Source: Pararhizobium sp.
GTDB taxonomy: Bacteria; Pseudomonadota; Alphaproteobacteria; Rhizobiales; Rhizobiaceae
Assembly: GCF_030655075.1 (NCBI RefSeq)
Contig: NZ_JAURWE010000061.1
Reading direction: 5' to 3' (one strand)
DNA length: 64,000 nucleotides
The notes beneath the pieces were generated by a model. The model did no database searches and was not told where the DNA came from. It saw nothing but the letters and a program-made list of their open reading frames with translations. Numbering within the stretch: the stretch's first letter is position 1; each line of letters opens with the position of its first letter. Positions 7,804-56,840 of this stretch are shown in pieces. The translations under genes were made by a program, and so were the position numbers.

Positions 7804-7867
7804 TATTGTCACCATTTCCCCACATTGCACTGGCAAGAAGCGCCTTAGTAGTTGTGAGTGGAGAAGC

Positions 7868-37631: not shown

Positions 37632-39740
37632 TCAGATATCCAGGTTCTCCGCAAAGGCCGAGCGTTCCTGGATGAAGCGGAAGCGGGCGTCGGGGCGGGT
37701 TCCCATCAGATTGTCCACCGCTTCGCGCGTGCCTTCGAAATCGATCTCGTCGATGGCGACCTTCAGGAGCGTGCGTTTGCCCGGGTCCATCGTCGTTTCC
37801 TTGAGCTGCGCGGCCATCATTTCGCCCAGCCCCTTGAAGCGGCCGATCTCGACCTTGCCGCGGCCCTTGAACTCGGTCTCCATCAGCTCCTGCCGGTGGG
37901 CGTCGTTGCGGGCGTAGAGCGTCTTGGCGCCCTGGCTCATGCGGTAGAGCGGCGGCACGGCGAGAAAGAGGTGGCCGCCGCGGATGAGCTCCGGCATCTC
38001 CTGGTAGAAGAAGGTGATCAGCAGCGAAGCGATGTGGGCGCCGTCGACGTCGGCATCGGTCATGATGATGATGCGGCCGTAGCGCAAGTCCTCGTCGCGA
38101 TACTTGCTGCGTGTGCCGCAGCCGAGCGCCAGGATCAGGTCGGAAATCTGCTGGTTGGCGCTGAGCTTTTCGCGGCCGGCGCTGGCGACGTTGAGGATCT
38201 TGCCGCGCAAGGGCAGGATCGCCTGATTGGTCCGGTTGCGCGCCTGTTTGGCCGAGCCGCCGGCCGAATCGCCTTCGACGATGAACAGTTCGGTGCCCTC
38301 GGGCGAATTCTTCGAGCAGTCGGCAAGTTTGCCAGGCAGACGCAGGCGGCTGACGGCGGTCTTGCGGTTGACTTCCTTTTCCTTGCGCCGCCGCATGCGC
38401 TCTTCCGAGCGCTCGATCACCCAGTCGAGCAGCTTTGCCGCTTCCTGCGGATTGTCGGCGAGATAATGATCGAACGGATCGCGAAGGGCATTTTCGACCA
38501 GGCGCTGGGCCTCGACGGTCGCCAGGCGGTCCTTTGTCTGGCCGACGAACTCCGGCTCGCGGATGAAGACCGAGAGCATGCCGGCAGCCGAAATCATCAC
38601 GTCGTCGGTGGTGATGTTGGCGGCGCGTTTGTTCTGCGTCAGGTCCGCATAGGATTTCAGCCCCTTGGTCAGCGCGATGCGGAAACCGGCCTCATGCGTG
38701 CCGCCCTCGGGCGTCGGGATGGTGTTGCAATAGGAGTGGACCATCGTGTCGCCACCGTACCAGGTGACGGCCCATTCCATGGCCCCATGGCCGCCGGTCT
38801 TTTCCGTCTTGCCGGCGAAGATCTCGCGGGTGACGGTGAAATCCTTGCCGAGCTGGGCTTTCAGGTAGTCCTTGAGGCCGCCTGGGAAATGGAAGACGGC
38901 CTTTTCCGGAATGTCGGAACCTTCGACGATCAGCGCCGCATCGCAGCTCCAGCGGATCTCGACGCCGCCGAACAGATAGGCCTTCGAGCGCGCCATGCGC
39001 ATGATGCGCCCGGCGTCGAATTTCGCATGCGGGCCAAAGATATCCGGATCGGGATGGAAGCGGGTGCGGGTGCCGCGGCGGTTGTGCACGTCGCCCAATT
39101 CTTCCAGATCGCCAAGCGGCACGCCGCGCGAAAAGCGCTGGCGGTAGAGCTTGCGATTGCGCGCCACCTCGACCTCGAGCAGGTCCGACAGCGCATTGAC
39201 GACGGAGACGCCGACGCCGTGCAGACCGCCCGAGGTCTCATAGGCCTTGCCGTCGAACTTGCCGCCCGCATGCAGCTTGGTCATGATGACTTCGAGCGTC
39301 GATTTGCCCGGAACCTGCGGATGGTTTTCGACAGGAATGCCGCGTCCATTGTCGGTGACGGTGAGGAAGCCGGCCGTATCCAGATGCACCTCGATGAAGT
39401 CAGCGTGGCCAGCCACCGCTTCGTCCATCGAATTGTCGATGACTTCAGCAAACAGGTGATGCAGCGCTTTTTCGTCCGTGCCGCCGATATACATGCCCGG
39501 CCGCATGCGCACGGGCTCGAGCCCTTCGAGAACGCGGATGGCCGAGGCGTCGTAGCTGTTGCTGTCACTGCCGGCAGGGCCGCTGCGGTTCTGGCGCGGT
39601 GCCGGTTCGGCCTTGACTGCGGTCTCGGGCGTGGCCTGTGGCTCGGGCGCTAGCTTGAGCACGGGCGCAGCGCTCGGCTTGGCAACGGCGGGTACGGGCT
39701 CTGCGCCAGAAGTCGAAAAAAGATCGTTCGGTTCGTCCAT
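37632..39740 (-). CDS. parE: DNA topoisomerase IV subunit B
   Basis: GHKL ATPase block LEGLEPVRMRPGMYIGGT...HHLFAEVIDNSMDEA, and Toprim block ELFIVEGDSAGGSAKQARNR...PLRGKILNV. At about 700 aa the length fits ParE rather than GyrB. Confidence 0.88.
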   Translation of the reverse strand: MDEPNDLFSTSGAEPVPAVAKPSAAPVLKLAPEPQATPETAVKAEPAPRQNRSGPAGSDSNSYDASAIRVLEGLEPVRMRPGMYIGGTDEKALHHLFAEVIDNSMDEAVAGHADFIEVHLDTAGFLTVTDNGRGIPVENHPQVPGKSTLEVIMTKLHAGGKFDGKAYETSGGLHGVGVSVVNALSDLLEVEVARNRKLYRQRFSRGVPLGDLEELGDVHNRRGTRTRFHPDPDIFGPHAKFDAGRIMRMARSKAYLFGGVEIRWSCDAALIVEGSDIPEKAVFHFPGGLKDYLKAQLGKDFTVTREIFAGKTEKTGGHGAMEWAVTWYGGDTMVHSYCNTIPTPEGGTHEAGFRIALTKGLKSYADLTQNKRAANITTDDVMISAAGMLSVFIREPEFVGQTKDRLATVEAQRLVENALRDPFDHYLADNPQEAAKLLDWVIERSEERMRRRKEKEVNRKTAVSRLRLPGKLADCSKNSPEGTELFIVEGDSAGGSAKQARNRTNQAILPLRGKILNVASAGREKLSANQQISDLILALGCGTRSKYRDEDLRYGRIIIMTDADVDGAHIASLLITFFYQEMPELIRGGHLFLAVPPLYRMSQGAKTLYARNDAHRQELMETEFKGRGKVEIGRFKGLGEMMAAQLKETTMDPGKRTLLKVAIDEIDFEGTREAVDNLMGTRPDARFRFIQERSAFAENLDI

Positions 39741-39942
39741 GGTGCCAATCAAATGTAATGCCGGTGCGGCCTGCACGCGGAATGCGAATCACTGGAATCT
39801 TGCCAGATTGCCGGCGTCCGGGCGAGGGGTCGCCTGCCGGTGGAAACTCTGGCCGCCCCGGCTGTTCCGGTAATGTTCGGACGAAGGATTGCGTCCCGGC
39901 GGCGCCGATGGCAAGTGTTGCAGCCACAAGGAGCCGATCCGC

Positions 39943-40824
39943 ATGCACATGTCCACAGCTCATTTCCTGAAAACCACTGCTTTCGCTCTGGCGGCGATGG
40001 TTTGGCTGACCGGTGCTGCGGGTGCGCAGGGCCTCAAACCCTTCAAGGACGAGATGTTCTCCTACGGCGACATCAAGGAAACCGCCGATGGCGGCGATTA
40101 CCGCGTCGTCGGCTATGACGAGATGCGCGACATCAACGGCCGTGACCAGATCCCCGAGCGGCGGGTGAAATCCGCCTATGTTTCGACCGGCGTGAAACGC
40201 CAGCAGGTCAACGAGACCTTGCCGCTCGGCGATAGCGGCATCGACGTCACCCGGGTCGGGCCGGAGACCGGCGCGGCGTTTTCGGTGATTTTCATCCACG
40301 GCCGGGGCGGCGACCGTCGGTTGGGCAGCAACGACTATTCCTTCGGCGGCAATTTCAACCGCGTCAAGAACCTCGCGGTGGCCAATGGCGGAACCTATTA
40401 TGCGCCGAGCGTCACCAGCTTCGATGCTGAGGGCGTGGCGCGCATCGCCGGCCTGATCGCCATGGTGCAGCAGCGCTCGCCCGGAAGACCGGTCATCCTG
40501 TCCTGTGCCTCGATGGGCAGCTTCATCTGCTGGGGCATCAGCCGCAAGCCCGACACGGTGGCGCAGCTTGCCGGCATGATGGTGATGGGCGGCGCAGTCG
40601 ATCCGGATTTTCCGAAAAGCGCCGCATTCAAGGCCAAGCTGCCGATGTTTTTCAGCCATGGCAGCAGGGACAGTGTTTACCCGGCCGAACAGCAGGTGGC
40701 GCTCTACCGGCAACTGAAGGCAGCAAATTATCCGGCCCGCTTCGTGCTGTTCGACAGCGGCTCGCACGGCACGCCTGTGCGCATGACCGACTGGCGCGAC
40801 GCGTTGAACTGGCTGTTGCGTTAG
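39943..40824 (+). CDS. secreted alpha/beta-hydrolase (esterase-like)
   Basis: Signal peptide ...LTGAAGAQG. FIHGRGGD, SCASMGS (nucleophile elbow variant), FSHGSRDSV, DSGSHG. Confidence 0.6.
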   Translation: MHMSTAHFLKTTAFALAAMVWLTGAAGAQGLKPFKDEMFSYGDIKETADGGDYRVVGYDEMRDINGRDQIPERRVKSAYVSTGVKRQQVNETLPLGDSGIDVTRVGPETGAAFSVIFIHGRGGDRRLGSNDYSFGGNFNRVKNLAVANGGTYYAPSVTSFDAEGVARIAGLIAMVQQRSPGRPVILSCASMGSFICWGISRKPDTVAQLAGMMVMGGAVDPDFPKSAAFKAKLPMFFSHGSRDSVYPAEQQVALYRQLKAANYPARFVLFDSGSHGTPVRMTDWRDALNWLLR

Positions 40825-40939
40825 CACACCAGCCGCACACGCTACAGCTTCATTAACCACGGCACCAATTGCTGCAATCAGACGTTGGCCCGTTTGCTAT
40901 TTTGAAAGCCCTCCATGGGAATGTGACCGGCATATTTCG

Positions 40940-42388
40940 TTGGGACGGCACGTTATGGACACACGGACAGATATCAGCAACATCCCGCTCTGCGTCGACC
41001 TCGATGGCACGCTGCTGGCGACCGATACGCTGTGGGAAGGCGCTGCCGTGATCCTGCTGCGCAACCCGCTGCTGATCTTTCCGATGCTCATGTGGATGCT
41101 GAAGGGCAAGGCCGTGCTGAAGCACGAGGTCGCCAAGCGCAGCCGGCGCCTCGCCGAAGACTGGGTCTACCGCGATGCGGTGATTGCCCGCCTGCGCGTG
41201 GAAAAAGAAAATGGCCGCAAGATCTTCCTGGTGACCGGCGCTGCGGAAAGCGTGGCCCTCGGCGTGCTAACCCATCTCGATGTCTTTTCCGGCGTCATTC
41301 ACTCCTCCGCGACCCTGAACCTCACCGGCAGCCGCAAGCGCGACGCGCTGGTTTCCCGCTTCGGCGAAGGTGGCTTCGACTATATCGGCAACAGCCGCGA
41401 CGATATACCGGCCTTTGATTCCGCCCGTCACGCCATTGTCGTGGCGCCCGATTCGGCGGCATCGAAATGGCAGAAGGCCCACGACAGCGAATTGCTCGAC
41501 ACCGGCGCCTCCAGCAAACTGGCGGTGCTGAAATCGATCCGCGTGCACCAATGGGCCAAGAACGTGCTGATTGGCGTGCCTGTCGTGCTCAATCACGACA
41601 TTGCCAATGTCGAAGCGATCGTTCATGCGGCCACCGGCTTCTTCGCCTTCAGCTTCCTTGCCTCCGCCGTCTACATCATCAACGACCTCTCCGACCTCAC
41701 CAACGACCGCCGCCACCCCAAGAAGAAGAAGCGCCCGCTCGCCAGCGGCCAGATGTCCGTGCCGATCGCCGCCGCTCTGGCCTTGAGCCTGATCGCCGCG
41801 TCGCTGGCGCTGACGCTGCTGCTGCCGCTGTTCTTCGCCGGTGTCCTTGCCTTCTATGCGGTCGCGACAACGGCCTACACATTCGTCCTCAAGCGCAAGT
41901 TGCTGGTCGATGTCTTCACGCTGGCAGGCCTCTACACCGTGCGCATCGTCGCCGGTGCGGCCGCCACCGGCGCCGAGCTGTCCTTCTGGCTCCTGTCCTT
42001 CTCGATCTTCTTCTTCTTGAGCCTGGCGCTGGTGAAGCGTTATGTCGAGCTGAACGAATATGATGGAAGCCAAGGCGATCAGGTACCGGGCCGAGGCTAT
42101 GTCTCGGTCGACTACGAGATGGTCGGGCAGGCTGGTGTCGCCTCGGCCTTTACCTCCGCCATGGTTCTGGCGCTTTATATCCACAGCAAGGAAATGCAGG
42201 AAATGTACACGACGCCCTGGGCGCTGTGGCCGCTCTGCCCGCTGGTGCTCTACATGCTGCTGCGCATCTGGATGCTCGCCCGCCGTTCCCTGCTGCATGA
42301 AGACCCGGTCGTCTTCATCATGCGCGACTGGCGCAGCCAGGTGACCATGGTGATCGGCGCCGGTCTGGTGCTGCTGGGAACCTTTTGA
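40940..42388 (+). CDS. fusion protein: HAD-like phosphatase domain plus UbiA-family polyprenyl-phosphate phosphoribosyltransferase-like domain
   Basis: N-terminal CVDLDGTLLATD (HAD motif I). C-terminal multi-TM UbiA domain with NDLSDLTNDRRHPKKKKRPLASG, the pattern I associate with decaprenyl-phosphate 5-phosphoribosyltransferase-type enzymes. Confidence 0.75.
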   Translation: MGRHVMDTRTDISNIPLCVDLDGTLLATDTLWEGAAVILLRNPLLIFPMLMWMLKGKAVLKHEVAKRSRRLAEDWVYRDAVIARLRVEKENGRKIFLVTGAAESVALGVLTHLDVFSGVIHSSATLNLTGSRKRDALVSRFGEGGFDYIGNSRDDIPAFDSARHAIVVAPDSAASKWQKAHDSELLDTGASSKLAVLKSIRVHQWAKNVLIGVPVVLNHDIANVEAIVHAATGFFAFSFLASAVYIINDLSDLTNDRRHPKKKKRPLASGQMSVPIAAALALSLIAASLALTLLLPLFFAGVLAFYAVATTAYTFVLKRKLLVDVFTLAGLYTVRIVAGAAATGAELSFWLLSFSIFFFLSLALVKRYVELNEYDGSQGDQVPGRGYVSVDYEMVGQAGVASAFTSAMVLALYIHSKEMQEMYTTPWALWPLCPLVLYMLLRIWMLARRSLLHEDPVVFIMRDWRSQVTMVIGAGLVLLGTF

Positions 42389-42389
42389 C

Positions 42390-43721
42390 ATGACGGCAGG
42401 AAGTTTCGACAGCTGGGGCCGGCTCGATCGCCGCCCGCGCGCCTCCGTCGGCGTCGATGCCGTCGAGGATGCCGGTCTTCTGTCGGCAGGGCCATCGCTT
42501 CTGCCGTTCGGCAACGGCCGTTCCTATGGCGACAGCTGCCACAATGACCAGGGACTGCTGATCGACAACCGCGCCCATGCGCGCATCACCTCGTTTGATC
42601 CCGGCACCGGCATCATCATCTGTGAGGCAGGCGCGACGCTGCGTCAGGTGCTGGAAAAGGCCATCCCGCACTTCTTCTTCCTGCCGGTGACGCCCGGCAC
42701 CGCCTTTGCCACCATTGCCGGTGCCGTCGCCAACGATGTGCATGGCAAGAACCACCATCTGCGCGGCACCTTCGGCAATCATGTGCGCAGTCTCACGCTG
42801 CTGCGCTCGACCGGCGAGCGGGTCACCTGCTCGATGAGTGAGAACACGGCGCTGTTTGAGGCGACGATCGGCGGCATGGGCCTGACGGGACTGATCCTGT
42901 CAGTCGAGCTGCAGCTGATGAAGGTGCCGTCGGCCCATATCCAGCAGCACACGATCCGCTTCGAGAGCCTGGGCGAATATTTCGACATCGTCGACGGTGT
43001 CGACGAGGCGCACGAATATTCCGTCGCCTGGATCGACCAGCTCGCCGCAAACAAGAAGATGGGCCGGGGCATCCTGCTCGCCGGAGACCATGCCGATGGC
43101 TCCTGCGAGTTTCCCGACGTGCCGCGCACGCTGAAATTCACCATCCCGGTGTCGCCGCCGTTCAATGTGCTCAACAGGCCGTTTCTCAAGGTTTTCAACG
43201 AGTTCTATTTCCGCAAGGAGCGGGAAGGCGAGGTCGTCAAGACCGTGCGCTGGCCGGGCTACTTCTATCCGCTCGATGCCATCAGCCACTGGAACAGGCT
43301 CTACGGGCCAAAAGGCCTTTATCAGCACCAGAGCGTCTATCCGGCCGATAACGCCCGTGAGATCACTGCGCTGCTGATGGAAACGGCCCGCAAGGCCGGG
43401 CATGCATCATTCCTGACGGTGCTGAAGAAGTTCGGCGGCATCCGCTCGCGCGGGCTTCTGTCCTTCCCGCGCCCCGGCTTCACGCTGACGCTGGATTTCG
43501 CCAATCAGGGTAAAGAAACCGTGAGCCTGCTCGACAGGCTCGACGCCATCGTCACCGAGGCCGGTGGCGCCATCAATCCCTACAAGGATGCGCGCATGAG
43601 CCCGCAAACCTTCGCAAAGTCCTTTCCGGACTGGGAAAAGCTGGAGGCGCTGCGCGACCCGGCGCTCGTTTCGAATTTCTGGGCGCGCACGGCGCTGATG
43701 TCGAAAAACGGGACTGCATAA
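42390..43721 (+). CDS. FAD-binding oxidoreductase, DprE1-like
   Basis: LPFGNGRSYGDSCHN (compare GLGRSYGD in DprE1-type oxidases), an FAD_binding_4 pattern, and a start 1 nt after the upstream stop. Confidence 0.75.
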   Translation: MTAGSFDSWGRLDRRPRASVGVDAVEDAGLLSAGPSLLPFGNGRSYGDSCHNDQGLLIDNRAHARITSFDPGTGIIICEAGATLRQVLEKAIPHFFFLPVTPGTAFATIAGAVANDVHGKNHHLRGTFGNHVRSLTLLRSTGERVTCSMSENTALFEATIGGMGLTGLILSVELQLMKVPSAHIQQHTIRFESLGEYFDIVDGVDEAHEYSVAWIDQLAANKKMGRGILLAGDHADGSCEFPDVPRTLKFTIPVSPPFNVLNRPFLKVFNEFYFRKEREGEVVKTVRWPGYFYPLDAISHWNRLYGPKGLYQHQSVYPADNAREITALLMETARKAGHASFLTVLKKFGGIRSRGLLSFPRPGFTLTLDFANQGKETVSLLDRLDAIVTEAGGAINPYKDARMSPQTFAKSFPDWEKLEALRDPALVSNFWARTALMSKNGTA

Positions 43722-43806
43722 AATTTGAATAAATTAAACGGCCAAACTTCACGGAATGTAATGCTCTGATGTGTATTGGAAGTCACAGAGAACAGGGACA
43801 CAACAC

Positions 43807-44244
43807 ATGAAGTATATCATATTCATTCTATTTACCGTGGCGACCAATGCTGCAGCCCAGATCATGCTGAAACAGGGCATGATGTCGCTCGGTCCGCTGA
43901 GCTTTACCGCCGATACCATGATCAGCCGTATATTCCAGATCATTTTCAATCCCTGGGTCTTTGCCGGACTTGCGACCTTCGTCATTTCGATGGCCTCGCA
44001 TCTTTACGTCCTGTCGAAGGTCGAGCTTTCCTTTGCCTATCCGTTCCTCAGCCTCGCCTATGTCGCGGTCGCGGTCGTCGCCTATTTCGTCTTTCGTGAA
44101 GATCTCAATGCCTGGCGGATCGCCGGCATCGCCTTCATCTGCATTGGCACGGTCCTGATCGCCCAATCGGGCCGCACCACCCCATCCCATGATGCCGGCA
44201 GCATCACAGAAGCAAACATCGCAAAAAGCGGGAGCCACGCATGA
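43807..44244 (+). CDS. small 4-TM membrane protein, EamA/SMR (ArnE/ArnF-like) candidate lipid-linked sugar flippase
   Basis: MKYIIFILFTVATNAAAQIMLKQGM... with four hydrophobic segments. Lower GC than its neighbours. The stop overlaps the next start (ATGA). Confidence 0.65.
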   Translation: MKYIIFILFTVATNAAAQIMLKQGMMSLGPLSFTADTMISRIFQIIFNPWVFAGLATFVISMASHLYVLSKVELSFAYPFLSLAYVAVAVVAYFVFREDLNAWRIAGIAFICIGTVLIAQSGRTTPSHDAGSITEANIAKSGSHA

Positions 44245-45251
44245 AGCACGTTATTTTTGGAGGCGACGGTTTCGTCGGCCGTCATCTGGCCGAGCGCCTG
44301 GTCAAGGACGGCGAAGAGGTCGTCATCGCCGATATCGCCAAGTCGGACCTGCCGCACTATTCCCGCGCCCGCTTCGTGCGCACCGACGTGACCGATGCCG
44401 AATCCGTCTTCAATGTCGAGATTGGCGCCGATGACATGGTCTACAACATGGCCGCCAAGATGCTGTCGCCGCTGCAGGTACGCGCCAAGCGCTGGGAGTT
44501 CTTCTGGCCGGTCAACTATTACGGTGCCGAAAACATCATGAAGGCGACGGCGCGGGCCAACGCCAGCAAGATGGTGCAGTTCACCACCGACATGATCTAC
44601 GGCCACACGGTACAGTCGCCGCAGACCGAGGATCATCCGGCAAAGCCGCTCGGCGAATACGGCAAGTCCAAGTGGGCAACCGAGAAACTGGTACATGAAT
44701 GGCGCAAGGAGGGGATCAACATCTCGATCTTCCGCCCGCGCCTGATCATCGGCCCCGGCCGTCTCGGCATCCTGGAAAAGCTGTTCAAGCTCATCGACAT
44801 GAACCTGCCGGTTCCGATGATCGGCTCGGGCAAGAACCCCTACCAGTTCATCTCGGTGTTCGACTGCGCCGAAGCCGCCCGTCTTGCCTGGAAAGGCGGC
44901 GTTCCGAACGAGGAATACAATCTCGGCTCCGACAATCCGCCATCGGTGAAAAAGCTGCTCGGCGACCTGATCGTGCATGCCGGTTCGAGATCGTTCCTGC
45001 TGCCGACGCCGGCCTTCGCGGTCAAGGCGACGCTGGCCGCCTTCGACTACATCAACATGCCGATCATGGATCCGGAACAGTATCTCATCGCCGACGAGAT
45101 GTGCATCCGCGAAACCGGCAAGCTGAAGCGCGAACTCGGCTGGAAGGCCCAGTTCAACGACGGCGACATGCTGATCGCGGCCTATGACGAATACCGCGCC
45201 AAGAAGGCAGGCAAGAGCTTTGCCGCCACCACCGCCGTTCCGGCCGAATGA
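44241..45251 (+). CDS. NAD-dependent epimerase/dehydratase-family (extended SDR) protein
   Basis: MKHVIFGGDGFVGRHLAERL (GxxGxxG Rossmann) and YGKSKWATE (YxxxK). Confidence 0.8.
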   Translation: MKHVIFGGDGFVGRHLAERLVKDGEEVVIADIAKSDLPHYSRARFVRTDVTDAESVFNVEIGADDMVYNMAAKMLSPLQVRAKRWEFFWPVNYYGAENIMKATARANASKMVQFTTDMIYGHTVQSPQTEDHPAKPLGEYGKSKWATEKLVHEWRKEGINISIFRPRLIIGPGRLGILEKLFKLIDMNLPVPMIGSGKNPYQFISVFDCAEAARLAWKGGVPNEEYNLGSDNPPSVKKLLGDLIVHAGSRSFLLPTPAFAVKATLAAFDYINMPIMDPEQYLIADEMCIRETGKLKRELGWKAQFNDGDMLIAAYDEYRAKKAGKSFAATTAVPAE

Positions 45252-46720
45252 ACATAAGGGACCTGACCATGCTCGATAAGCCGAACCGCGTTGCCGTCGA
45301 CGCGCCCGCCCTTGATGGCGGCATCAAGAAGCCCAGCCTGGTGACCGTCGAACAGGCAAAGGCCATGAGCCTTGCCGACATGACGACCTTCTTCAAGGAC
45401 CATCTCAACCCCGGCCAGCTGCACTTCATGAAGCTTCTGGGCTTCAACAAGGTGAAGATCGAAAGCGCCGAAGGCATGTACTACACCGACCAGAACGGTC
45501 GGAAGATCCTCGACTTCTTCGGCGGTTTCGGCTCGCTCGCCTTCGGCCACAACCATCCGCGCATCATCGCCGCCCGCAAGGCCTTTCAGGACGAGAACCG
45601 GCACGAGATCGCCATTGCCTTCATGTCGCAATATGCGGCGGCCCTTGCCCGCAACCTGGCGCTGATTTCGCCCGGCGACCTCGACATGGTCTTCCTCGGC
45701 TCCTCGGGCTCCGAAGCCATGGAAGCCGCCATCAAGGTGGCCGAGCGTGCGGCCGGGCCGAAGCGCCCGCGCATCGTCTATGCGGAGAATTCGTTCCACG
45801 GCAAGACCAAGGGCGTGCTGTCGATCACCGACGGGCCGCTCTATCGCGGCGAATTCAAGCTGCTCGAAAACAACGTCAAGGTGCCGTTCGGCGACATCGA
45901 CGCCATCCGCAACGCCTTCGAGCGCGACCCGTCGATCGGCGTGCTGGTGCTCGAAACCATCCAGGGCGGCGGCGGCATCGTCTCGGCCCCGCCGGAATTC
46001 TGGCAGGACGTGCGCGCGCTCTGCGACAAACACGGCGTCATCTGGGTGGCCGACGAAGTCCAGTGCGGCATGGGCCGCTCCGGCCGCTTCTTCGCCTTTG
46101 AACATGCAGGCGTCGTGCCGGACGTGACGGCGCTTGCCAAGTCGCTCGGCGGCGGCAAGACGGCGATGGCGGCGATGATCGCCCGTCGCGACATCTACAT
46201 GAAGGCCTATGGCACGCCGAAGACGGCGCTGATCCACGGCCACGCCACCTTCGGCGGCATCGGCGAGGCCTGCATCACGGCGATCGAAGGCCTCAACATC
46301 ATGTATGACGAGGACCTGATCGAGAACGCTGCCGTGCAGGGCGACTATCTGCTCGAACGGCTGAAGGCGCTGCAGGAAAAATATCCGAAGATCATCAAGG
46401 ATGTGCGCGGGCAGGGGCTCATGGTCGGCCTGGAGTTCCAGGACTTCAGCCAGACGCTGCCGATGGTGCTGCGCCCGGTCGTGGCGATGCTCGACGACAA
46501 GCTCAAGGGCTCGCTCTCCGGCTTCATCGGCGCGCTGCTCCTGCGCGACTACAACACGCTGGTGGCGTTTACCGAGTATAACCGCAACGTCATCCGCCTC
46601 GAGCCGCCGCTGATCTGCGAACGCAGCCATGTCGACCAGTTCGTCGATGCCCTCGACAACCTGCTTGACCGCGGCATCGTCCGCATCGTCAAGGACTTCG
46701 TCGGCAGCCAGATCGGCTGA
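45248..46720 (+). CDS. class-III (omega-type) PLP-dependent aminotransferase
   Basis: [14 protein letters not shown]...[10 protein letters not shown]...[18 protein letters not shown]...LAKSLGGG (PLP Lys). ATGA overlap with the SDR gene. Confidence 0.85.
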
Positions 46721-46742
46721 GCGGAATTCGACAGCAACAGGC

Positions 46743-46775
46743 AAGCCGGCGGTCTCCGCCGGCTTTTGCGTTTTC
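46743..46775 (+). terminator. rho-independent terminator after the five-gene operon
   Basis: AAGCCGGCGG-TCT-CCGCCGGCTT followed by TTGCGTTTT. Confidence 0.8.
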
Positions 46776-46854
46776 AGGTGATGACGCTTCTCTTGGCCCG
46801 CTATATTTGTTAAGCGCTCTCCCGACCGAAATACACCAACCGCAGGAAAACGCG

Positions 46855-47625
46855 ATGACCCCCGATGTGCGCCCGCTTGTTGCCGGAAACTGGAAAATGA
46901 ATGGGGTGCGCGCTTCGCTCGACCAGATCAAGGCCATGGCCGAGGGTGTGAAAGGGGAGCTTTCGGCCAAGGTTGAGACGCTGATCTGCCCGCCCTCGAC
47001 GCTGCTCTATGTGGCAACTGCGCTCTGCGACGACAGCCCCTTAAAGATCGGCGGCCAGGATTGCCATCAGGATGCGTCCGGAGCCCACACCGGCGACGTC
47101 TCGGCCGAGATGATTGCCGACTGCTTCGGAACCCATGTCATCGTCGGCCATTCCGAGCGCCGCACCGACCATAAGGAAAGCGATGAGCTGGTGCGTGTGA
47201 AGGCCGGGCGCGCGTTCGAGGCCGATCTGGTCGCCATCATCTGCATCGGCGAGACCGGTGACGAGCGCAAGGCGGGCGCGACGCTCGAGGTGCTGAAGCG
47301 CCAGCTCGCCGGCTCCGTGCCGGACAGTGCCACGGCCGCTAGCACCGTCATTGCCTATGAGCCGGTCTGGGCGATCGGCACGGGGCTGACGCCGACGGCC
47401 AAGGATATCGAGGAGGCACATGCCTTCATGCGCGCCGAACTGGTGGCGCGTTTTGCCGGCGAGGGCGCCAAAATGCGCATTCTCTACGGCGGATCGGTCA
47501 AGCCCGGCAATGCCGCCGAGCTGATGGGTGTCGCCAATGTCGATGGCGCGCTGATCGGTGGCGCCAGCTTGAAAGCATCAGACTTCCTCGCCATCTATGG
47601 CGCATATGCCGCATTGACCGCCTGA
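46855..47625 (+). CDS. tpiA: triosephosphate isomerase
   Basis: [10 protein letters not shown]...VGHSERR...[11 protein letters not shown]...GGASL. Confidence 0.93.
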
Positions 47626-47723
47626 TCGCGTAAGAGCCGGCATCAGGGGCTTTTAAAGCGCGGTCGCTTGGTATATGCAGCCGCCAACACCGAAATTGTG
47701 CCACCACGGCAGGACTGGACCAA

Positions 47724-48245
47724 ATGCAGACCGTATTGCTTGTCATCTATCTCATGGTTGTTCTCGTGCTGATCGGCGTCGTGCTGATCCAGCGCTCCGA
47801 AGGTGGCGGCCTCGGCATCGGCGGCGGCTCCGGCTTCATGTCGGCACGCGGCACGGCCAACGCCCTGACGCGCACCACCGCGATCCTCGCGGCGCTGTTT
47901 TTCATCCTGGCGCTCGGCATGGGCATCCTTGCCCGCTACGACCGCCAGCCGACCGACATCCTCGACCGCATCCCGCAGACACAGGGCACCGGCAACGGCG
48001 TTCTCGACTCGCTCGGCGGCGAAACCCCTGCTGGTGAAACGCCTGCCGGCGGTGCCGATGGCGCCAACAATGCCGTGCCGAACGACGGCGGTGCTGCCGA
48101 CACGACCGGTGCGCAGCCGGCCACCACCACCACGGGCACGGACACCAAGACCGAGACCCCAGCGACAACCGACACCGGCAAGACCGACACGAAGACCACG
48201 CCGGACACGACGACGCCTGACACGGGCGTTCCAAGCGGCCAGTAA
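47724..48245 (+). CDS. secG: preprotein translocase subunit SecG with an extended Thr/Pro/Asp-rich tail
   Basis: MQTVLLVIYLMVVLVLIGVVLIQRSEGGGLG...TRTTAILAALFFILALGMGIL is the SecG core, followed by a low-complexity tail of about 75 aa (ETPAGETPAG, TDTKTETPATTDTGKTDTKTTPDTTTPDT). Confidence 0.85.
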   Translation: MQTVLLVIYLMVVLVLIGVVLIQRSEGGGLGIGGGSGFMSARGTANALTRTTAILAALFFILALGMGILARYDRQPTDILDRIPQTQGTGNGVLDSLGGETPAGETPAGGADGANNAVPNDGGAADTTGAQPATTTTGTDTKTETPATTDTGKTDTKTTPDTTTPDTGVPSGQ

Positions 48246-48268
48246 AAAGGCCCGGCCCAGACCATCAG

Positions 48269-48307
48269 CCGGCAGATGATCCTTTGCTCATCTGCCGGTT
48301 TTCTTTT
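48269..48307 (+). terminator. rho-independent terminator after secG
   Basis: CCGGCAGATGA - 8 nt - TCATCTGCCGG followed by TTTTCTTTT. Confidence 0.85.
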
Positions 48308-48309
48308 GA

Positions 48310-50025
<1,716 letters not shown>

Positions 50026-50270: not shown

Positions 50271-51986
50271 TTAAAGCCTCAACGCCCACACAGTCGCATG
50301 TGTCACCGTGCCCTGTGCCGCCATCAGCCTTGCCGAGCGCACCGGCTCGAACCCCTTGATCCGTTTGGTGCCGGTCCAGCGGCCGTCGTCGGCAAAGACC
50401 TCGATGGAGCCGTAGTCCACGAAGATGCGCAGGCGGCGGGGGCGGGCGCCGGCGGCGATGTAGTGGGGCGAGGGCGCGCCATCACCGGTGTCGTAGCGGA
50501 TGGCGAGGCCGGCCTCGTCGAGAACAACAGCCAGGTGCACTTCGGGATGCTGGAACTCCAGCGTGAAGGGCGCGCCCGGTGCGTCGAGCTCGAAGAAGAG
50601 CTCGACCGCGCCGTTGAGGAAGCTGACCGGATCGCCGGCGGCCAGCCTTGTGCGGTCGAGAATGTGGCTGCGCAGGCTTTCTGCCGCCCCGATCGGCGGC
50701 GTGTGCAGGTCGCCGTTCGACAGGTGCAGGCGGCGCGGCAGGGTCATCGCCGTGGGGAAATCGATGGTCGGGCCCGTATCGGCCCAGTTGGCGAGCCAGC
50801 CCATGCCGACGATCGTGTCGCCATCGACGAAGGCCTGGAAGGCATAATTGTCGGTGCCGAAATCCAGCTCTTTCTCGAACTCCTTGATGAAGGTTCTGCC
50901 GTCGAACCAGCCGACCGAGGCGATGGTGAGGTTCTTGCGGCCGGTCGCCGCGTCCTCGCTGGTCATAAGGCCATAGAGCAGCACCCAGCGGGTCGAGGGA
51001 TTGGTGGCGGGGCCGTCGATCGGCAGCAGGCAGGGGCACTCGATCGCCGTCGTCGTGTAGCGGTGCTCGACCAGCAGCTTGCCGATGAAGGTCCAGCCTG
51101 TGGCGGCGGTGCGGTCCTCGGTCTCGTAGAGCAGGATGACGCCGCCCGCATCGCTCTGACTGCCGAGCAGCATCTTCCACAGGCCGTCCGGCCCGCGAAA
51201 GACGTATGGGTCGCGGAAGTCGCTGGTCAGGCCCTGGTCGACCGGCCGGTGCGGCAGGATGACATCGGCCCTGCCGGCCATGATCAGGTCGCCGGATGTG
51301 GCGGTGAGCTGGATCTGCTGCTCGGGCTGGCGGTCCTGCACCTGTTCGGTGAAGAAGACGCGAATGCCCGGACCATCGGGTAGCGGCACGGCCGAGCCGG
51401 AAAAGGCACCGCCGCGCTTGTCGGGCCGTGCCGTCAGATCTTCGGATGGGAAAAGGAAGATCGGCAGGTGGCGCCAGCGCAGATAGTCCGGCGACACCGC
51501 ATGGCCCCAGTGCATCGTGTTCCAGGTGAGCCCATGCGAATAGTGCTGGTAGAACAGGTGCGGGCGGCCATCGAAACGGCCAAAGCCGTTCGGATCGTTC
51601 ATCCAGCCGAAGGGCGGGCGGAAATGGTAGCTGCCGGGAACGTTCGGCGGGGCGTTGCCGGGGTTGGTATGGAGCACCGTGATGCCCGTATCCAGCACAT
51701 CCGACGGCGTGAACCAGTAGGCGACGGAAACGGCAGTCTGGTCGATGTCATAGCTGAGATCGACGCCGCCGCCGCCGAAGACGTGGAAGATGCGGAATTC
51801 GTATTCCTCCGGATTGGTGACGAGCACCTCGCCGAACTTGCCGTTGACGTTCGAAAACGAGATCGAGCCCGGCCCCTCCGCCGAGGTCGCCTTCAGCCAC
51901 AGGTGCAGCGTGGCGTTGACGGGCAGTTCGACATAGAGCGTGCGCAATGTCCTGACGGTTGTGGGAGCTGGCTGGTTGACGTTCAT
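50271..51986 (-). CDS. glycoside hydrolase family 32 (beta-fructofuranosidase/levanase-like) with an N-terminal extension of about 130 aa
   Basis: GH32 catalytic motifs WMNDPNG, FRDPYVF (RDP) and AIECPC (EC). GGAGGA SD before the ATG at 51986. No signal peptide. Confidence 0.85.
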   Translation of the reverse strand: MNVNQPAPTTVRTLRTLYVELPVNATLHLWLKATSAEGPGSISFSNVNGKFGEVLVTNPEEYEFRIFHVFGGGGVDLSYDIDQTAVSVAYWFTPSDVLDTGITVLHTNPGNAPPNVPGSYHFRPPFGWMNDPNGFGRFDGRPHLFYQHYSHGLTWNTMHWGHAVSPDYLRWRHLPIFLFPSEDLTARPDKRGGAFSGSAVPLPDGPGIRVFFTEQVQDRQPEQQIQLTATSGDLIMAGRADVILPHRPVDQGLTSDFRDPYVFRGPDGLWKMLLGSQSDAGGVILLYETEDRTAATGWTFIGKLLVEHRYTTTAIECPCLLPIDGPATNPSTRWVLLYGLMTSEDAATGRKNLTIASVGWFDGRTFIKEFEKELDFGTDNYAFQAFVDGDTIVGMGWLANWADTGPTIDFPTAMTLPRRLHLSNGDLHTPPIGAAESLRSHILDRTRLAAGDPVSFLNGAVELFFELDAPGAPFTLEFQHPEVHLAVVLDEAGLAIRYDTGDGAPSPHYIAAGARPRRLRIFVDYGSIEVFADDGRWTGTKRIKGFEPVRSARLMAAQGTVTHATVWALRL

Positions 51987-52314
51987 GAACCCGATCCTCC
52001 GTTTTTTCTGCCCTGCGGGAATGACATAGGGGCCATCAGGCAAACGGAAAGACCGGCGGGCAGCATTGCTGCGCATGGAGCGCGCGCGGCCCGATCAGCC
52101 GTGCTGCCGCTTTTGTCCCGTTTTCTGGCCTGCCGGCGTCTTATCGCTTGATCTTGACGCCGTCAGGAGGCAAGTGCAGGGGGCGGCGGCCGTAGCCCGC
52201 CCCGAGCGTCCTGCCATTGGCGAACTCCGGATACCTGTCGTGGAACAATCCTATCAGATGCCGCTTACGGACAACAGCGATCTTGCCATCGAGGCGGAAG
52301 AGACCGGCGGCGTG

Positions 52315-54023: not shown

Positions 54024-55328
54024 TTACATATGGCCGCCGCCGAGGCCCTCGGCCGGTTCGGCGCCGTCGCCCGGATGGGTGAAGAGCTTGCCGCCTTCGG
54101 CCCACAGCGTGGCGGCGATGGTCACCAGTCCGAAGATCATGAACGCAGCGAACAGCGGCTGCACCGTGCCATTGAACATCTGGCCCACAAGGCCGCCGAG
54201 CAGGGCGCCGCCGGTGGTCGAGACGAAGCCGGTGATCGCGGTCGCCGTTCCCGCCAGTTCCCCCATCGGCTCGAGGCTGATGGCGGTGAAATTGGTGGTG
54301 ATCACGGCAAACATGATCAGGAGAACCGAAAACAGGCCATAGGCGATGAGGAAGGGCGGCCTGCCCAGCAGCGACAGCGCAAAACCGGCGGCCGCAAGGA
54401 TTGTGAACAGGATCATCGCCACATGCGAAATGCTCCGCATGCCGAAACTGCGGACGAAATAGCCGTTGGCGAAATTGGCAATGGCGATGCCGCCGGCGGT
54501 TCCTGCAAAGGCGAGCGGCAACCAATCACCGAGACCGTAGACCTCGCCAAAAATCTGCTGGACCGTGACGATATAGGCGCAGATGACGGCCGTGAACAGC
54601 GTCGTGCCGATCATGTAGCCGCAGGTGATGCGGTTGCCGAGCACCGCACCGAAGCCCGAGGTCACCGACTTGACCGACAGCGGCCGCCGTTCGCCGGCAG
54701 GAAGCGATTCCTTGATGCGTGTCAGCGCCCAGATGAAGAGCACCGCACCGGCAAGGCCGAGCGCCAGAAAAATCCAGTGCCAGCTCGCATTGACGACGAT
54801 CAGCTGGCCGATCGACGGGGCGACGATGGGCACGATCATGAAGACGATGAAGACATAGGACATGACCCGCGCCATCTCGCGGCCGCCGAAACAGTCGCGC
54901 ACGATCGCCATGGTGGTGATGCGGATGGCGGCAGCGCCGACCCCTTGGGCGAAGCGCAGCACCAGCAGCGCCTCGAAGCTGGTGGTGAAGGCCGTGGCCA
55001 GCATGGTCAGCGTGAAGAAGGCGAGGCCGCTGAGCAGCAGCGTGCGGCGCCCGAACGCATCTGAAAGGCTGCCGAAGAAGATCTGCGACAGGCCGAAGCC
55101 GAAAAAGAACACGGCAATGATCAGCTGCGTGTCGTTGGTGTTGGCGACCTTGAGCGCCTGGCCGATGCTGGGCAGCGCCGGCAGCATAATGTCGATGGCC
55201 ATGGCGACGCTGGCCGTCATCAGGGCGATGGTGATGACGAATTCGAAAAAGCCGAGGCCGATGCGGGCCGAGCCGCCTGTCTCGGGTGTTGGAGCGGCTG
55301 TTGTTTCAATGGACGTCATGGAGGGCAT
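54024..55328 (-). CDS. MFS transporter, Bcr/CflA-type drug-resistance family (copy 2)
   Basis: 12-TM pattern. LSDAFGRRTLLL (MFS motif A region). Paralogous to the upstream gene. Confidence 0.8.
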   Translation of the reverse strand: MPSMTSIETTAAPTPETGGSARIGLGFFEFVITIALMTASVAMAIDIMLPALPSIGQALKVANTNDTQLIIAVFFFGFGLSQIFFGSLSDAFGRRTLLLSGLAFFTLTMLATAFTTSFEALLVLRFAQGVGAAAIRITTMAIVRDCFGGREMARVMSYVFIVFMIVPIVAPSIGQLIVVNASWHWIFLALGLAGAVLFIWALTRIKESLPAGERRPLSVKSVTSGFGAVLGNRITCGYMIGTTLFTAVICAYIVTVQQIFGEVYGLGDWLPLAFAGTAGGIAIANFANGYFVRSFGMRSISHVAMILFTILAAAGFALSLLGRPPFLIAYGLFSVLLIMFAVITTNFTAISLEPMGELAGTATAITGFVSTTGGALLGGLVGQMFNGTVQPLFAAFMIFGLVTIAATLWAEGGKLFTHPGDGAEPAEGLGGGHM

Positions 55329-56592
55329 TACCTTGTGCAGCGGTTCCGTCAGCGGAGCCCGTCTGTTCGTTGTGAGGTCTGAAGAGTTTGCCGTTTTCGG
55401 CGATGAACACGAAGATCAGGCCCAGCACCGAGACGATGAGGAAACCGACGGCAAGCGGCGTCACCGTGCCGTCGAAGGCCTGGCCGATGGCAGCACCTAT
55501 GAGGGCGCCGCCGATGGTCTGGCTGAAACCGAGAACGGATGAGGCGGTACCCGCCACCGCGCCGAGCGGCTCCATCGCCATCGAATTGAAGTTCGGCGCG
55601 ATGATGCCGAACTGCATCAGCGCCAGGCCGTAGATGATCGCGAACAGCCAGAAGGGCACTGAGCCCAGCAGGGCAGAACCGGCAAAAACCGCGCTGATCA
55701 GCGCGAAGAGAATGAGCGCCGTATGCGACAGCCGCCGCATGCCGAAGCGTTGCACCAGCCGCGAATTGGCGAACGAGGCAATCGCCATCATGCTGGCAAA
55801 GCCCGCAAAGGCGAGCGGAAACCAGACGCCGAGACCATAGATGCCGACGAGGATCTGCTGGGCGGAGTTGATGAAGCCGAACAGCGAGCCGAAGATGACG
55901 GAGGTGCCGATGTTGTAGAAAAGCGACGTGCGGTTGGTGAGCACGATGCGGAAGGCGCCGGACACCGACGCGATGCTGAGAGGGCGGCGGTGTTCGGGCG
56001 CCAGTGTTTCCGGGAGGCGGGTATAGACCATGACGGCGACGAACAGGCCGTAAAGGCCGATGAAGACGAAGATCATGTGCCACTCGGCAAACAGCATGAT
56101 GCCCTGGCCGATCGACGGCGCGATGACCGGGATGATCATGAACACCATCATGACCAGCGACATGATTTCGGCCATCTGACGGCCGCCGTAGATGTCGCGC
56201 ACGACGGAGACAGCAATGACGCGTGTCGCTGCGGCGCCGACGCCCTGCATGAGGCGCAACGCCAGAAGACCGGCAAAGCTCGGCACCAGCGCGATCGAAA
56301 AGGCGCAGACCACATAGATGCCGATACCCGCCAGCAGCGGCGCCTTGCGGCCATACCGGTCCGACAGCGGTCCGAAGGCGAGCTGCGCCACGCCCATGCC
56401 GATCAGATAGGCCGAAATGACATATTGGCGGTGGTTCTCGTCGGTGACGCCGAGGCTGGCACCGATCTGCTGCAGGCCCGGCAGCATGATGTCGATGGCC
56501 AGCGCATTGATGGCCATCAGCATGGCGGTCAGTGCGATGAATTCATATTTCGACGGCACGGCGATCGTGTGTCCCTGTGGCGATATAGTCAT
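55306..56592 (-). CDS. MFS transporter, Bcr/CflA-type drug-resistance family (copy 1)
   Basis: Start chosen at MTISPQGH (56592). LSDRYGRKAPLL. 12-TM pattern. The 3' end overlaps the start of the next MFS gene. Confidence 0.8.
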   Translation of the reverse strand: MTISPQGHTIAVPSKYEFIALTAMLMAINALAIDIMLPGLQQIGASLGVTDENHRQYVISAYLIGMGVAQLAFGPLSDRYGRKAPLLAGIGIYVVCAFSIALVPSFAGLLALRLMQGVGAAATRVIAVSVVRDIYGGRQMAEIMSLVMMVFMIIPVIAPSIGQGIMLFAEWHMIFVFIGLYGLFVAVMVYTRLPETLAPEHRRPLSIASVSGAFRIVLTNRTSLFYNIGTSVIFGSLFGFINSAQQILVGIYGLGVWFPLAFAGFASMMAIASFANSRLVQRFGMRRLSHTALILFALISAVFAGSALLGSVPFWLFAIIYGLALMQFGIIAPNFNSMAMEPLGAVAGTASSVLGFSQTIGGALIGAAIGQAFDGTVTPLAVGFLIVSVLGLIFVFIAENGKLFRPHNEQTGSADGTAAQGNALHDVH

Positions 56593-56840
56593 CTGATATC
56601 CTGCTGCGCCGGAAAAATTGGCGCCTGATAGGTGTCGAGCCGGAAATGCCCGGTTTTGATCGTCGGCGGGCAGGGGGCCGGCCGGCATGGAAGGGTATGG
56701 TCGTTTTGACGGCCAATCCCGGCGTGTCGCACCAAAGGCGATATCACTGGATTGCTGGCATACTGTGACAGGGCCGGCATGCACACGGACCCGTAATGGC
56801 TCGGGACCGTTGTGCTGAGGGCAGGAAATGCGGGAATCAA

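Follow-up and report, generated by a model that had tools for sequence, protein, structure and literature searches.

What does a class-III aminotransferase do in an operon whose other genes look equipped to build a pentose on polyprenyl phosphate and to carry it across the membrane? The question is raised by five open reading frames (ORFs; here g1 to g5, in order), all on the plus strand at 40955-46720 and closed by one terminator, in a 64,000-nucleotide (nt) stretch of the Pararhizobium sp. contig NZ_JAURWE010000061.1 (assembly GCF_030655075.1); "the window" below means that whole stretch. The answer that we favor, with a probability of roughly 55 %, is that the cluster makes and exports a ribose-derived aminopentofuranose linked to polyprenyl phosphate, which would serve as the donor when a surface glycan is glycosylated in the periplasm. 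Literature searches, extended to noeCHOP, to aminopentoses in glycans, and to work following the 2024 study of pentofuranose systems (PMC11127046), returned no account of an aminotransferase-containing variant of the polyprenyl-phosphate (Pren-P) pentose pathway, and this version of a known pentose-decoration pathway would be undescribed in the literature searched. The system is real and conserved and can be tested biochemically; experimental precedent exists for the activity of the g1 architecture only, and we infer every later step.

A reading of this DNA made from the letters alone (hereafter the sequence-only reading) had described the genes as tightly coupled. This holds for three of the junctions, all of them laid out as it had claimed: the TGA of g1 ends at 42388, a single nucleotide before the g2 ATG at 42390, and ATGA overlaps join g3 to g4 (44241-44244) and g4 to g5 (45248-45251). 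It does not hold between g2 and g3, which are separated by an 85-nt spacer.

The type of system is indicated by g1 (40955..42388, plus strand; 477 amino acids [aa]), which combines an N-terminal HAD phosphoribose-phosphatase domain with a C-terminal UbiA polyprenyl-phosphate phosphoribosyltransferase domain (Pfam HAD and UbiA). This architecture is identical to that of Citrobacter youngae ORF15 (N-terminal HAD, C-terminal UbiA), which makes polyprenyl-phosphate-ribofuranose from phosphoribosyl pyrophosphate (PRPP) (Kelly et al. PNAS 2024, PMC11127046). The g1 protein exceeds the cut-off of NCBIfam NF006088/PRK08238 (569 bits against 351), its next-best NCBIfam models are all decaprenyl-phosphate phosphoribosyltransferases, and its best solved structure is Mycobacterium tuberculosis Rv3806c (8j8j, E 2.5e-26), the next prenyltransferase reaching E 0.0036. 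The UbiA domain thus sides with phosphoribosyltransferases and not with aromatic prenyltransferases, as had been proposed, and the motif block claimed for it exists (NDLSDLTNDRRHPKKKKRPLASG, nt 41681-41749), with the NDxxDxxxD loop intact as NDLSDLTND (nt 41681-41707); the HAD nucleophile motif DLDGT is likewise intact (nt 40997-41011). The ATG at 40955 is the most likely start, rather than the alternative TTG at 40940, because a 477-aa entry is 100 % identical and homologues span 477-483 aa; the closest homologues, at 74-79 % identity, are from Pararhizobium, Ensifer, and Rhizobium. On its domains, models, and motifs, g1 would therefore provide both the UbiA phosphoribosyltransferase and the phosphatase of such a system: the UbiA domain would move 5-phosphoribose from PRPP to polyprenyl phosphate, and the fused HAD domain would strip the 5-phosphate.

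Synthases of this kind (PPPRS) work with a flippase of the MATE or small multidrug resistance (SMR) type and with a glycosyltransferase of the GT-C fold as "three-component systems," to which auxiliary enzymes may be added: a GalE-like short-chain dehydrogenase/reductase (SDR) yields xylofuranose (Xylf), and DprE1/DprE2 homologues accompany glycans that contain arabinofuranose (Araf) (PMC11127046). The C. youngae O1/O2 systems (ORF15-ORF14-ORF12, with the epimerase ORF13) are like the window cluster in their fused HAD and UbiA synthase, in their small membrane flippase, and in the optional SDR or DprE1-type enzymes that modify the lipid-linked sugar before export; a GT-C completes them, and clusters orthologous to that of the window have an adjacent GT-C-like gene. 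They differ in that the window adds a class-III aminotransferase and a DprE1-like oxidase without DprE2, and holds no GT-C. In this regard, an aminotransferase is mentioned nowhere in the paper on pentofuranose systems or in its supplement (PMC11127046).

The oxidase is where the window cluster starts to part from the known routes. g2 (42390..43721, plus strand; 443 aa; Pfam FAD_binding_4) is a DprE1-family FAD-dependent oxidase, as previously read from its GNGRSYGD motif (confirmed at nt 42510-42533): the DprE1 model is its best match in NCBIfam, and DprE1 structures are its best solved relatives (E 3e-66). It keeps the residue aligned with the lysine of DprE1 YTAKDSR (here NPYKDAR) and carries Thr in place of the cysteine of DprE1 NVCVDF; we take these to be, respectively, the catalytic Lys418 and the benzothiazinone-target Cys387. 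When the translations of g2, g4, and g5 were read by eye, none showed an obvious signal peptide at its N terminus, so that their chemistry is probably cytoplasmic and precedes flipping. With the decaprenyl-phospho-arabinose route of mycobacteria (Rv3806c, Rv3807c, DprE1, DprE2) and its homologues in proteobacteria (P. aeruginosa PsPA7_6245-6249; Azorhizobium noeCHOP), the window cluster shares a PRPP-dependent ribosylation of polyprenyl phosphate, removal of the 5'-phosphate, and an oxidation step catalyzed by a DprE1-family flavoenzyme; unlike that route, it lacks the DprE2 short SDR, has a fused HAD phosphatase instead of PAP2 and an SMR-like instead of a GtrA-like flippase, and contains an aminotransferase and a GalE-like SDR as extras. 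Canonical proteobacterial clusters (Rhizobium etli pRetIE4771d, a Cereibacter plasmid, a Burkholderia stagnalis replicon) encode a HAD-UbiA protein, GtrA, an FAD oxidase, and an SDR of about 245-250 aa; the short SDRs of R. etli and Cereibacter match the NCBIfam DprE2 model at 187-196 bits, and both of these clusters include polytopic proteins of 500-540 aa that look like GT-Cs, R. etli adding a GT87. No such DprE2-type short SDR, that is, a classical NADH-dependent reductase of about 250 aa beside DprE1, is found in the window cluster, where g4 is the sole SDR. In a neighbor-joining (NJ) tree, the g2 proteins of aminotransferase-type clusters form a clade of their own, apart from the oxidases partnered with DprE2. 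A DprE1-type oxidase without DprE2 implies that the keto product needs another fate.

Could g4 nonetheless take the place of DprE2, as the sequence-only reading had assumed when it let genes 1, 2, and 4 make an arabinofuranose-type donor? g4 (44241..45251, plus strand; 336 aa) is an extended, GalE-like NAD(P) SDR (Pfam Epimerase, E 2e-33) with GGDGFVG and YGKSK motifs, whose best solved relative is GalE-1 (3ehe, E 6e-20). The DprE2 model is not among its listed NCBIfam matches, and BLASTP against the DprE2-like SDR of R. etli (locus L083; L-numbers denote the comparison loci of this analysis) gives E 0.5, i.e., no similarity. The equation of g4 with DprE2 thus falls, and with it arabinofuranose as the best reading, all the more as Hoeflea marina drops g4 and yet keeps the aminotransferase. 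From its sequence, g4 would rather be an auxiliary epimerase or oxidoreductase, and its presence or absence would, by analogy, mirror that of the SDR epimerase between C. youngae O2 and O1. In Azospirillum B510 (L085, 7247-11602), a homologue 44 % identical to g4 has as neighbors a GMC oxidoreductase and a membrane protein of 580 aa, with no UbiA gene nearby.

A neutral donor could be reached in other ways, and it is quite unlikely, in our estimate, that the product is an arabino-, xylo-, or lyxofuranose, with g4 replacing DprE2 and/or acting as a C3 epimerase and with g5 unrelated or loosely connected to the rest, e.g., through a role in polyamine or amino-acid metabolism that the conservation data make unlikely. 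Formally, g1, g2, and an SDR suffice for an epimerization of the DprE1/DprE2 type; in C. youngae O2 a GalE-like SDR alone turns Pren-P-ribofuranose into Xylf, and the known pentofuranose systems are described without any aminotransferase (PMC11127046). The resemblance of g5 to putrescine aminotransferase also speaks for such a donor, which brings the argument to the distribution of g5.

A scan of related genomes, one per species, gave 80 loci. All five genes occur in the same order and on the same strand at 61 of these, which is far from chance; 17 have g1 and g2 only, one is interrupted by a contig end, and one (H. marina) keeps g1, g2, g3, and g5 with a 79-nt gap between g3 and g5 in place of g4. 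Wherever g3 is present (63 of the 80), g5 is present as well (62 of the 63), a contig end being the sole exception. Median identities to the window in this set are 74 % for g1, 72 % for g2, 79 % for g3, 85 % for g4, and 84 % for g5, so that g4 and g5 are the two most conserved genes by this measure, and g5 has the narrowest range of the five (79-91 %). The five genes are also found together on a Neorhizobium chromid, in Aurantimonas, in Roseibium, and in a Methylobacterium metagenome-assembled genome (MAG), at identities of about 48-50 % (g1), 51-55 % (g2), 62-76 % (g3), 66-72 % (g4), and 74-77 % (g5). The aminotransferase is thereby maintained across at least five families of Hyphomicrobiales, even without g4. 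Given these 62 of 63 loci and the four distant genera, the aminotransferase travels with the cluster and is no fortuitous neighbor, the possibility by which the sequence-only reading had proposed that it could be refuted. Other HAD-UbiA clusters (Roseomonas, Jannaschia, Azospirillum, Vibrio, Rhizobium sp. CCGE531, S. garamanticum) are modular, and their components include flippases of the EamA/SMR or GtrA type, GMC oxidoreductases, additional SDRs, and hypothetical membrane proteins of large size; an aminotransferase was present in none of the 10 inspected.

The g5 protein itself (45248..46720, plus strand; 490 aa; Pfam Aminotran_3, E 5e-85) is a class-III (fold-type I) pyridoxal phosphate (PLP) aminotransferase of the PigE/YgjG clade, with the motifs DEVQCG and AKSLGGG; the lysine expected to bind PLP is in AKSLGGG. 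PigE (prodigiosin) and YgjG/PatA (putrescine) are its closest characterized and solved relatives (PigE 4ppm best, E 2e-76; YgjG, E 1e-67); unlike them, g5 is a single-domain protein in a lipid-sugar operon, not in a pigment or polyamine locus. It scores 360 bits with the NCBIfam PigE model (cut-off 850), to whose C-terminal domain only it corresponds, and 300 bits with the putrescine aminotransferase model (cut-off 612). On these scores and in this genomic context, we rejected both a putrescine aminotransferase and a PigE equivalog as identities for g5. Its orthogroup is discrete: in a search space of 1.84 billion representatives at 50 % identity, one full-length representative stands at 76 % identity, the next at 46 %, and the remainder at no more than 42 %, and in the searches made here it was found only in these clusters. 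Against a neutral donor, then, stand a g5 that overlaps g4, varies least, accompanies g3 in every complete locus, forms an orthogroup confined to these clusters, is kept where g4 is lost, and has out-group relatives that are again linked to lipid-sugar genes, as described next.

If g5 acts on the lipid-linked sugar, the carbonyl that it aminates has to come from one of its neighbors. The gene content of H. marina, where g5 persists without g4, argues that g2 rather than g4 supplies the carbonyl substrate, g4 being auxiliary, and that the oxidase and the aminotransferase are the core pair. On this basis, in the pathway to an aminopentofuranose, g2 would oxidize a ring hydroxyl to a ketone, at the 2' position if homology to DprE1 is a guide; g5 would transaminate this keto intermediate to an amino sugar, no DprE2 being present, as gene content and comparative context suggest; and g4 might optionally epimerize another center, e.g., C3' in the manner of C. 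youngae ORF13. The position of the amino group is the main uncertainty, and a 2-amino sugar is speculation.

Out-group relatives of g5, at 37-46 % identity to it, bear on this point. In L103 (1626-5260), a GT2 is followed by a DprE1-like oxidase (37 % identical to g2; DprE1 model, 397 bits) and then by a 40 % identical g5 homologue, the GT2 resembling ArnC, PpgS, and dolichyl-phosphate hexose transferases. In L105 (8598-15299), a 39 % homologue comes directly after an FAD_binding_4 oxidase that is 26 % identical to g2, and downstream come two methyltransferases with a GT2 between them and then a 614-aa protein with 10 transmembrane (TM) segments, all within a polysaccharide locus. Another 40 % homologue sits upstream of a PMT_2 GT-C. 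The recurrence of a Pren-P-sugar synthase, a DprE1-family oxidase, and a member of the g5 clade in architectures unrelated to one another suggests oxidation and transamination on the lipid, of which it is the strongest, though indirect, support, and the L103 and L105 clusters suggest, from their gene content, a hexose-based counterpart of lipid-level amination.

The relative at 46 % has two extended SDRs coupled to it, one of which shares 30 % identity with g4 (E 2e-45), and beyond these genes lie a methyltransferase and then a contig-truncated UbiA-like gene with NDYYDAEQD. This arrangement implies that the carbonyl donor could be g4, and the chemistry of PigE and YgjG implies that the position attacked could differ from a ring ketone. 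On such an account g4, or g2 at another hydroxyl, would make a 3'-keto or a 5'-aldehyde that g5 aminates, the product being a lipid-linked 3-amino-3-deoxy- or 5-amino-5-deoxy-pentofuranose, and g2 would serve elsewhere, e.g., in a 2'-oxidation for epimerization. We judge this unlikely as a whole. It draws on PigE and YgjG, which use aldehydes or primary amines, on the translational coupling of the 46 % out-group aminotransferase to its two extended SDRs (one g4-like), on a further out-group aminotransferase that follows a thioester-reductase-like SDR, and on the ATGA overlap between g4 and g5 themselves; it meets the difficulty that H. marina has g5 without g4, that in two independent out-group clusters the aminotransferase comes straight after a DprE1-family oxidase with no SDR between, and that a 2'-keto made just for epimerization would require a reductase when DprE2 is absent. 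Two further contexts of out-group relatives were uninformative. So were, as clues to the substrate, the plasmid PigE-like relatives of Ralstonia and Thioclava, which are located in prodiginine-type clusters; plasmid PigE-type enzymes are about 33-36 % identical to g5.

An aminopentose on polyprenyl phosphate recalls the Arn pathway, which modifies lipid A with 4-amino-4-deoxy-L-arabinose (L-Ara4N) and in which a DegT-type aminotransferase acts on a UDP-sugar, so that the amino group is already in place when the sugar reaches the lipid. The two are alike in their end logic, i.e., a cationic aminopentose on polyprenyl phosphate, flipping of the ArnE/F type, and a GT-C; unlike L-Ara4N, the window sugar would be a furanose that originates from PRPP and that a class-III enzyme would aminate once it is on the lipid. 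In gene content, only the ArnE/F-like g3 is shared, the cluster having no ArnA, ArnB, ArnC, ArnD, or ArnT, and neither the cluster nor the window having a GT2 or a homologue of ArnA, ArnD, or ArnT.

This g3 (43807..44244, plus strand; 145 aa) is the putative flippase, a 4-TM membrane protein of SMR/EamA type (Pfam EamA, 28.9 bits). A hydropathy scan gives about four TM segments, and the top NCBIfam models are ArnF (E 1.5e-14) and ArnE (4e-9), both under the cut-off, in line with its earlier description as an ArnE/F-like 4-TM protein; its start is the ATG at 43807, judging from orthologues, whose length the resulting 145 aa match. SMR transporters are among the flippases listed for pentofuranose systems in the paper and supplement (PMC11127046), and g3, which is encoded with the synthase, is accordingly placed among candidates for a small flippase of this kind: it would flip the product to the periplasm.

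There, a GT-C would add the sugar to an acceptor. The sequence-only reading had noted that the operon encodes none, and the window as a whole has none either; beside orthologous clusters in other genera there is a protein whose predicted fold is GT-C-like. The transferase in the lineage of the window itself must be encoded elsewhere: among candidates within the window, hydropathy and Pfam gave only the MFS transporters at 54024-56784, hidden Markov models (HMMs) of the two membrane-protein families described below found nothing in it, and in Ensifer and Pararhizobium loci the genes that separate g5 from tpiA are small ORFs, with no homologue of either family among them. Where the cluster lies away from the parE-tpiA site, g5 has next to it the gene for a membrane protein of about 395-405 aa, co-directional in several Hoeflea, Nitratireductor, Aurantimonas, and Methylobacterium, and convergent in Roseibium (e.g., L078, 15831-17015; L088, 10001-11203; L089, 10001-11191; L090, 10001-11212; also L070, L073, L077, L054, L057, and L062). 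This orphan family of about 400 aa has only 48 homologues found. Conserved in it are acidic residues of the first loop (PEHNWD) and the motifs RPDG and PDDR. Its AlphaFold (AF2) model is confident (pLDDT 94, pTM 0.92), and the top Foldseek matches of that model are almost all GT-Cs (ALG9, STT3/PglB, ArnT, ALG12, ALG3, EmbB, AftB), which makes it, on the predicted fold, a candidate new GT-C family; the candidate lies outside the known families, and an assignment to GT136 would be conjecture. In Lentilitoribacter, H. marina, one Hoeflea MAG, and two Rhizobiaceae MAGs (L066, 15767-17590, and L064, 15089-16966, both minus strand; also L053, L058, L063, and L068), the gene for a second polytopic protein, of about 530-625 aa, faces g5 in convergent orientation. 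The protein carries MYWDSYIYFDA behind the first TM helix, has a C-terminal domain that is soluble, and may act as an alternative transferase. By hhalign, the two families are unrelated; neither has a Pfam family (up to E 10) or a relative by PDB profile search. A 31 % relative of the 400-aa protein occurs in another polysaccharide locus without a UbiA gene (L091). Two large membrane proteins near the cluster in other loci, of 830 aa (an MscK-type channel) and 637 aa (a Kup transporter), were considered and excluded as GT-Cs.

As for the acceptor, the Roseibium cluster lies within an exopolysaccharide locus (Wzz, GT4s, a Wzx-type flippase, GumK_N, GT2) and the Neorhizobium cluster near a Wzy_C/O-antigen-ligase-type gene, from which a surface polysaccharide is the probable acceptor. 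In the aminopentofuranose pathway, the last step would thus be the addition of the sugar by an unlinked GT-C (adjacent in other genera) to an exopolysaccharide or lipopolysaccharide. The same data address the least likely reading, which we hold to be very improbable, namely that no glycosyl donor is made at all and that the end product is a terminal membrane lipid (polyprenyl-phosphate-aminopentose or a derivative) or a small-molecule intermediate, or else that the UbiA domain ribosylates some other acceptor. The window without a GT-C gene, the adjacent membrane proteins of other genera without family assignment, and the PigE-type natural-product enzymes among the relatives of g5 would all suit it. 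It leaves aside the conserved SMR/ArnEF-like g3, the GT-C-like protein adjacent in five genera, and the Roseibium cluster within a polysaccharide locus, and every characterized member of the synthase family feeds GT-C glycosylation (PMC11127046).

Several observations weigh against an aminopentofuranose donor and have to be set beside those that favor it. At the level of the product, literature searches found no aminopentofuranose reported in any bacterial glycan. At the level of the enzymes, g2 scores 333 bits with the DprE1 model, below its curated cut-off of 500; PigE and YgjG, the closest characterized relatives of g5, use aldehydes or terminal amines and not ring ketones; and the nearest out-group aminotransferase (46 %) is coupled to SDRs without a visible FAD oxidase. 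At the level of the transferase, the hydropathy screen, Pfam, and HMMs revealed no GT-C or other transferase gene for the system in the 64-kb window, and the match of the 400-aa protein to the GT-C fold is weak (best E 8e-3, none reaching 1e-3, TM-scores 0.3-0.45). Finally, a monophyletic Hoeflea subclade has g1 and g2 alone at this locus: the 11 sampled of the 17 loci with only these two genes form a single subclade nested among five-gene clusters in the NJ tree of g2, a position that points to one event of loss or relocation.

Beyond this locus, we would tentatively extend the argument to a general route, in which a DprE1-family oxidase and a dedicated class-III clade make amino sugars on polyprenyl phosphate, here a 2-amino-2-deoxy-pentofuranose from Pren-P-ribofuranose that would become a cationic substituent of a surface polysaccharide through new GT-C families. 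Such a generality would rest on the fact that elsewhere the pair sits with GT2 genes (one like Pren-P-hexose synthases), often beside methyltransferases, and would contrast with DegT amination on nucleotide sugars. A 2-amino-2-deoxy-pentofuranose was not found reported in any natural glycan in our literature search. If the proposal were true, cationic amino-pentofuranoses would join the bacterial sugar repertoire, and amination would be possible on the lipid carrier by a class-III enzyme paired with a DprE1-type oxidase. Positive surface substituents (L-Ara4N, GalN, GlcN) typically alter resistance to cationic peptides and interactions with hosts, and such charge effects bear on plant-associated Rhizobiaceae. 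Periplasmic side-chain glycosylation from polyprenyl-phosphate pentofuranoses was established in 2024, for neutral sugars only (Ribf [ribofuranose], Xylf, Araf) (PMC11127046). The cluster also offers testable targets, including the two candidate new GT-C families.

The spacer between g2 and g3 deserves attention as a possible regulatory site. It is AT-rich (43722..43806, plus strand) and its length is maintained in orthologous loci across genera (median 94 nt); the motif TTCACGGAAT, at 43748-43757 in the window, is conserved in 34 of 66 spacers, and 31 of those 34 have it at a distance of 54-59 nt before the g3 ATG. CAATTT..AAATAA precedes the motif, and CGTA, GGTA, or GCTA comes about 15 nt behind it. 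A test of the spacer for conserved RNA secondary structure found none. From its length and conserved motif, an internal promoter is possible, and the spacer may be a promoter or operator that divides a g1-g2 module from a g3-g5 module. In a Hoeflea MAG (L075, 12955-15336), an IS66-family transposase and a PRiA4_ORF3-like gene stand exactly within this spacer, the insertion dividing the cluster into g1-g2 and g3-g5.

At the other end, an intrinsic terminator closes the cluster at 46743-46775 (plus strand), with a 10-bp stem (8 G-C pairs; 46743-46765 with its 3-nt loop) and a T-rich tail directly 3' of it (TTGCGTTTT, TTGCGTTTTC). The strong terminator announced by the sequence-only reading is, indeed, the best-formed terminator-like site downstream on this strand. 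An Rfam scan of 39000-48500 gave zero matches.

The flanks consist upstream of parE (37632-39776, minus strand) and a gene for a secreted alpha/beta hydrolase (39889-40824), and downstream of the housekeeping genes tpiA, secG, and pyrG. We rejected the hydrolase as a member of the system, as it is syntenic only beside parE and absent from nonsyntenic clusters. Farther along the window, the minus strand encodes a GH32 glycoside hydrolase (50271-52076) and, a few kilobases away, two MFS transporters in tandem (54024-55328 and 55306-56784), neither of which is a GT-C; all three are unrelated to the cluster.

In clusters away from the parE site, Methylobacterium included, the gene directly upstream of g1 encodes the MscK-type channel of about 830 aa (L057, L070, L073-L075, L077, and L078, at about 7350-9850; L090, 1304-3736), and a DUF1194 gene recurs downstream in L088 and L090. 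Among HAD-UbiA clusters of other kinds, those on plasmids of S. garamanticum (L086, 7045-14962) and Rhizobium sp. CCGE531 (L087, 8989-16931) hold, beside the HAD-UbiA gene, two extended SDRs and a GMC oxidoreductase, together with an SMR transporter and a hypothetical membrane protein of 659 aa. A plasmid of Azospirillum ramasamyi (L097, 6384-9308) encodes a "UbiA family prenyltransferase" of 975 aa, about double the normal length, which may be a synthase fused to another membrane domain; an EamA gene comes next.

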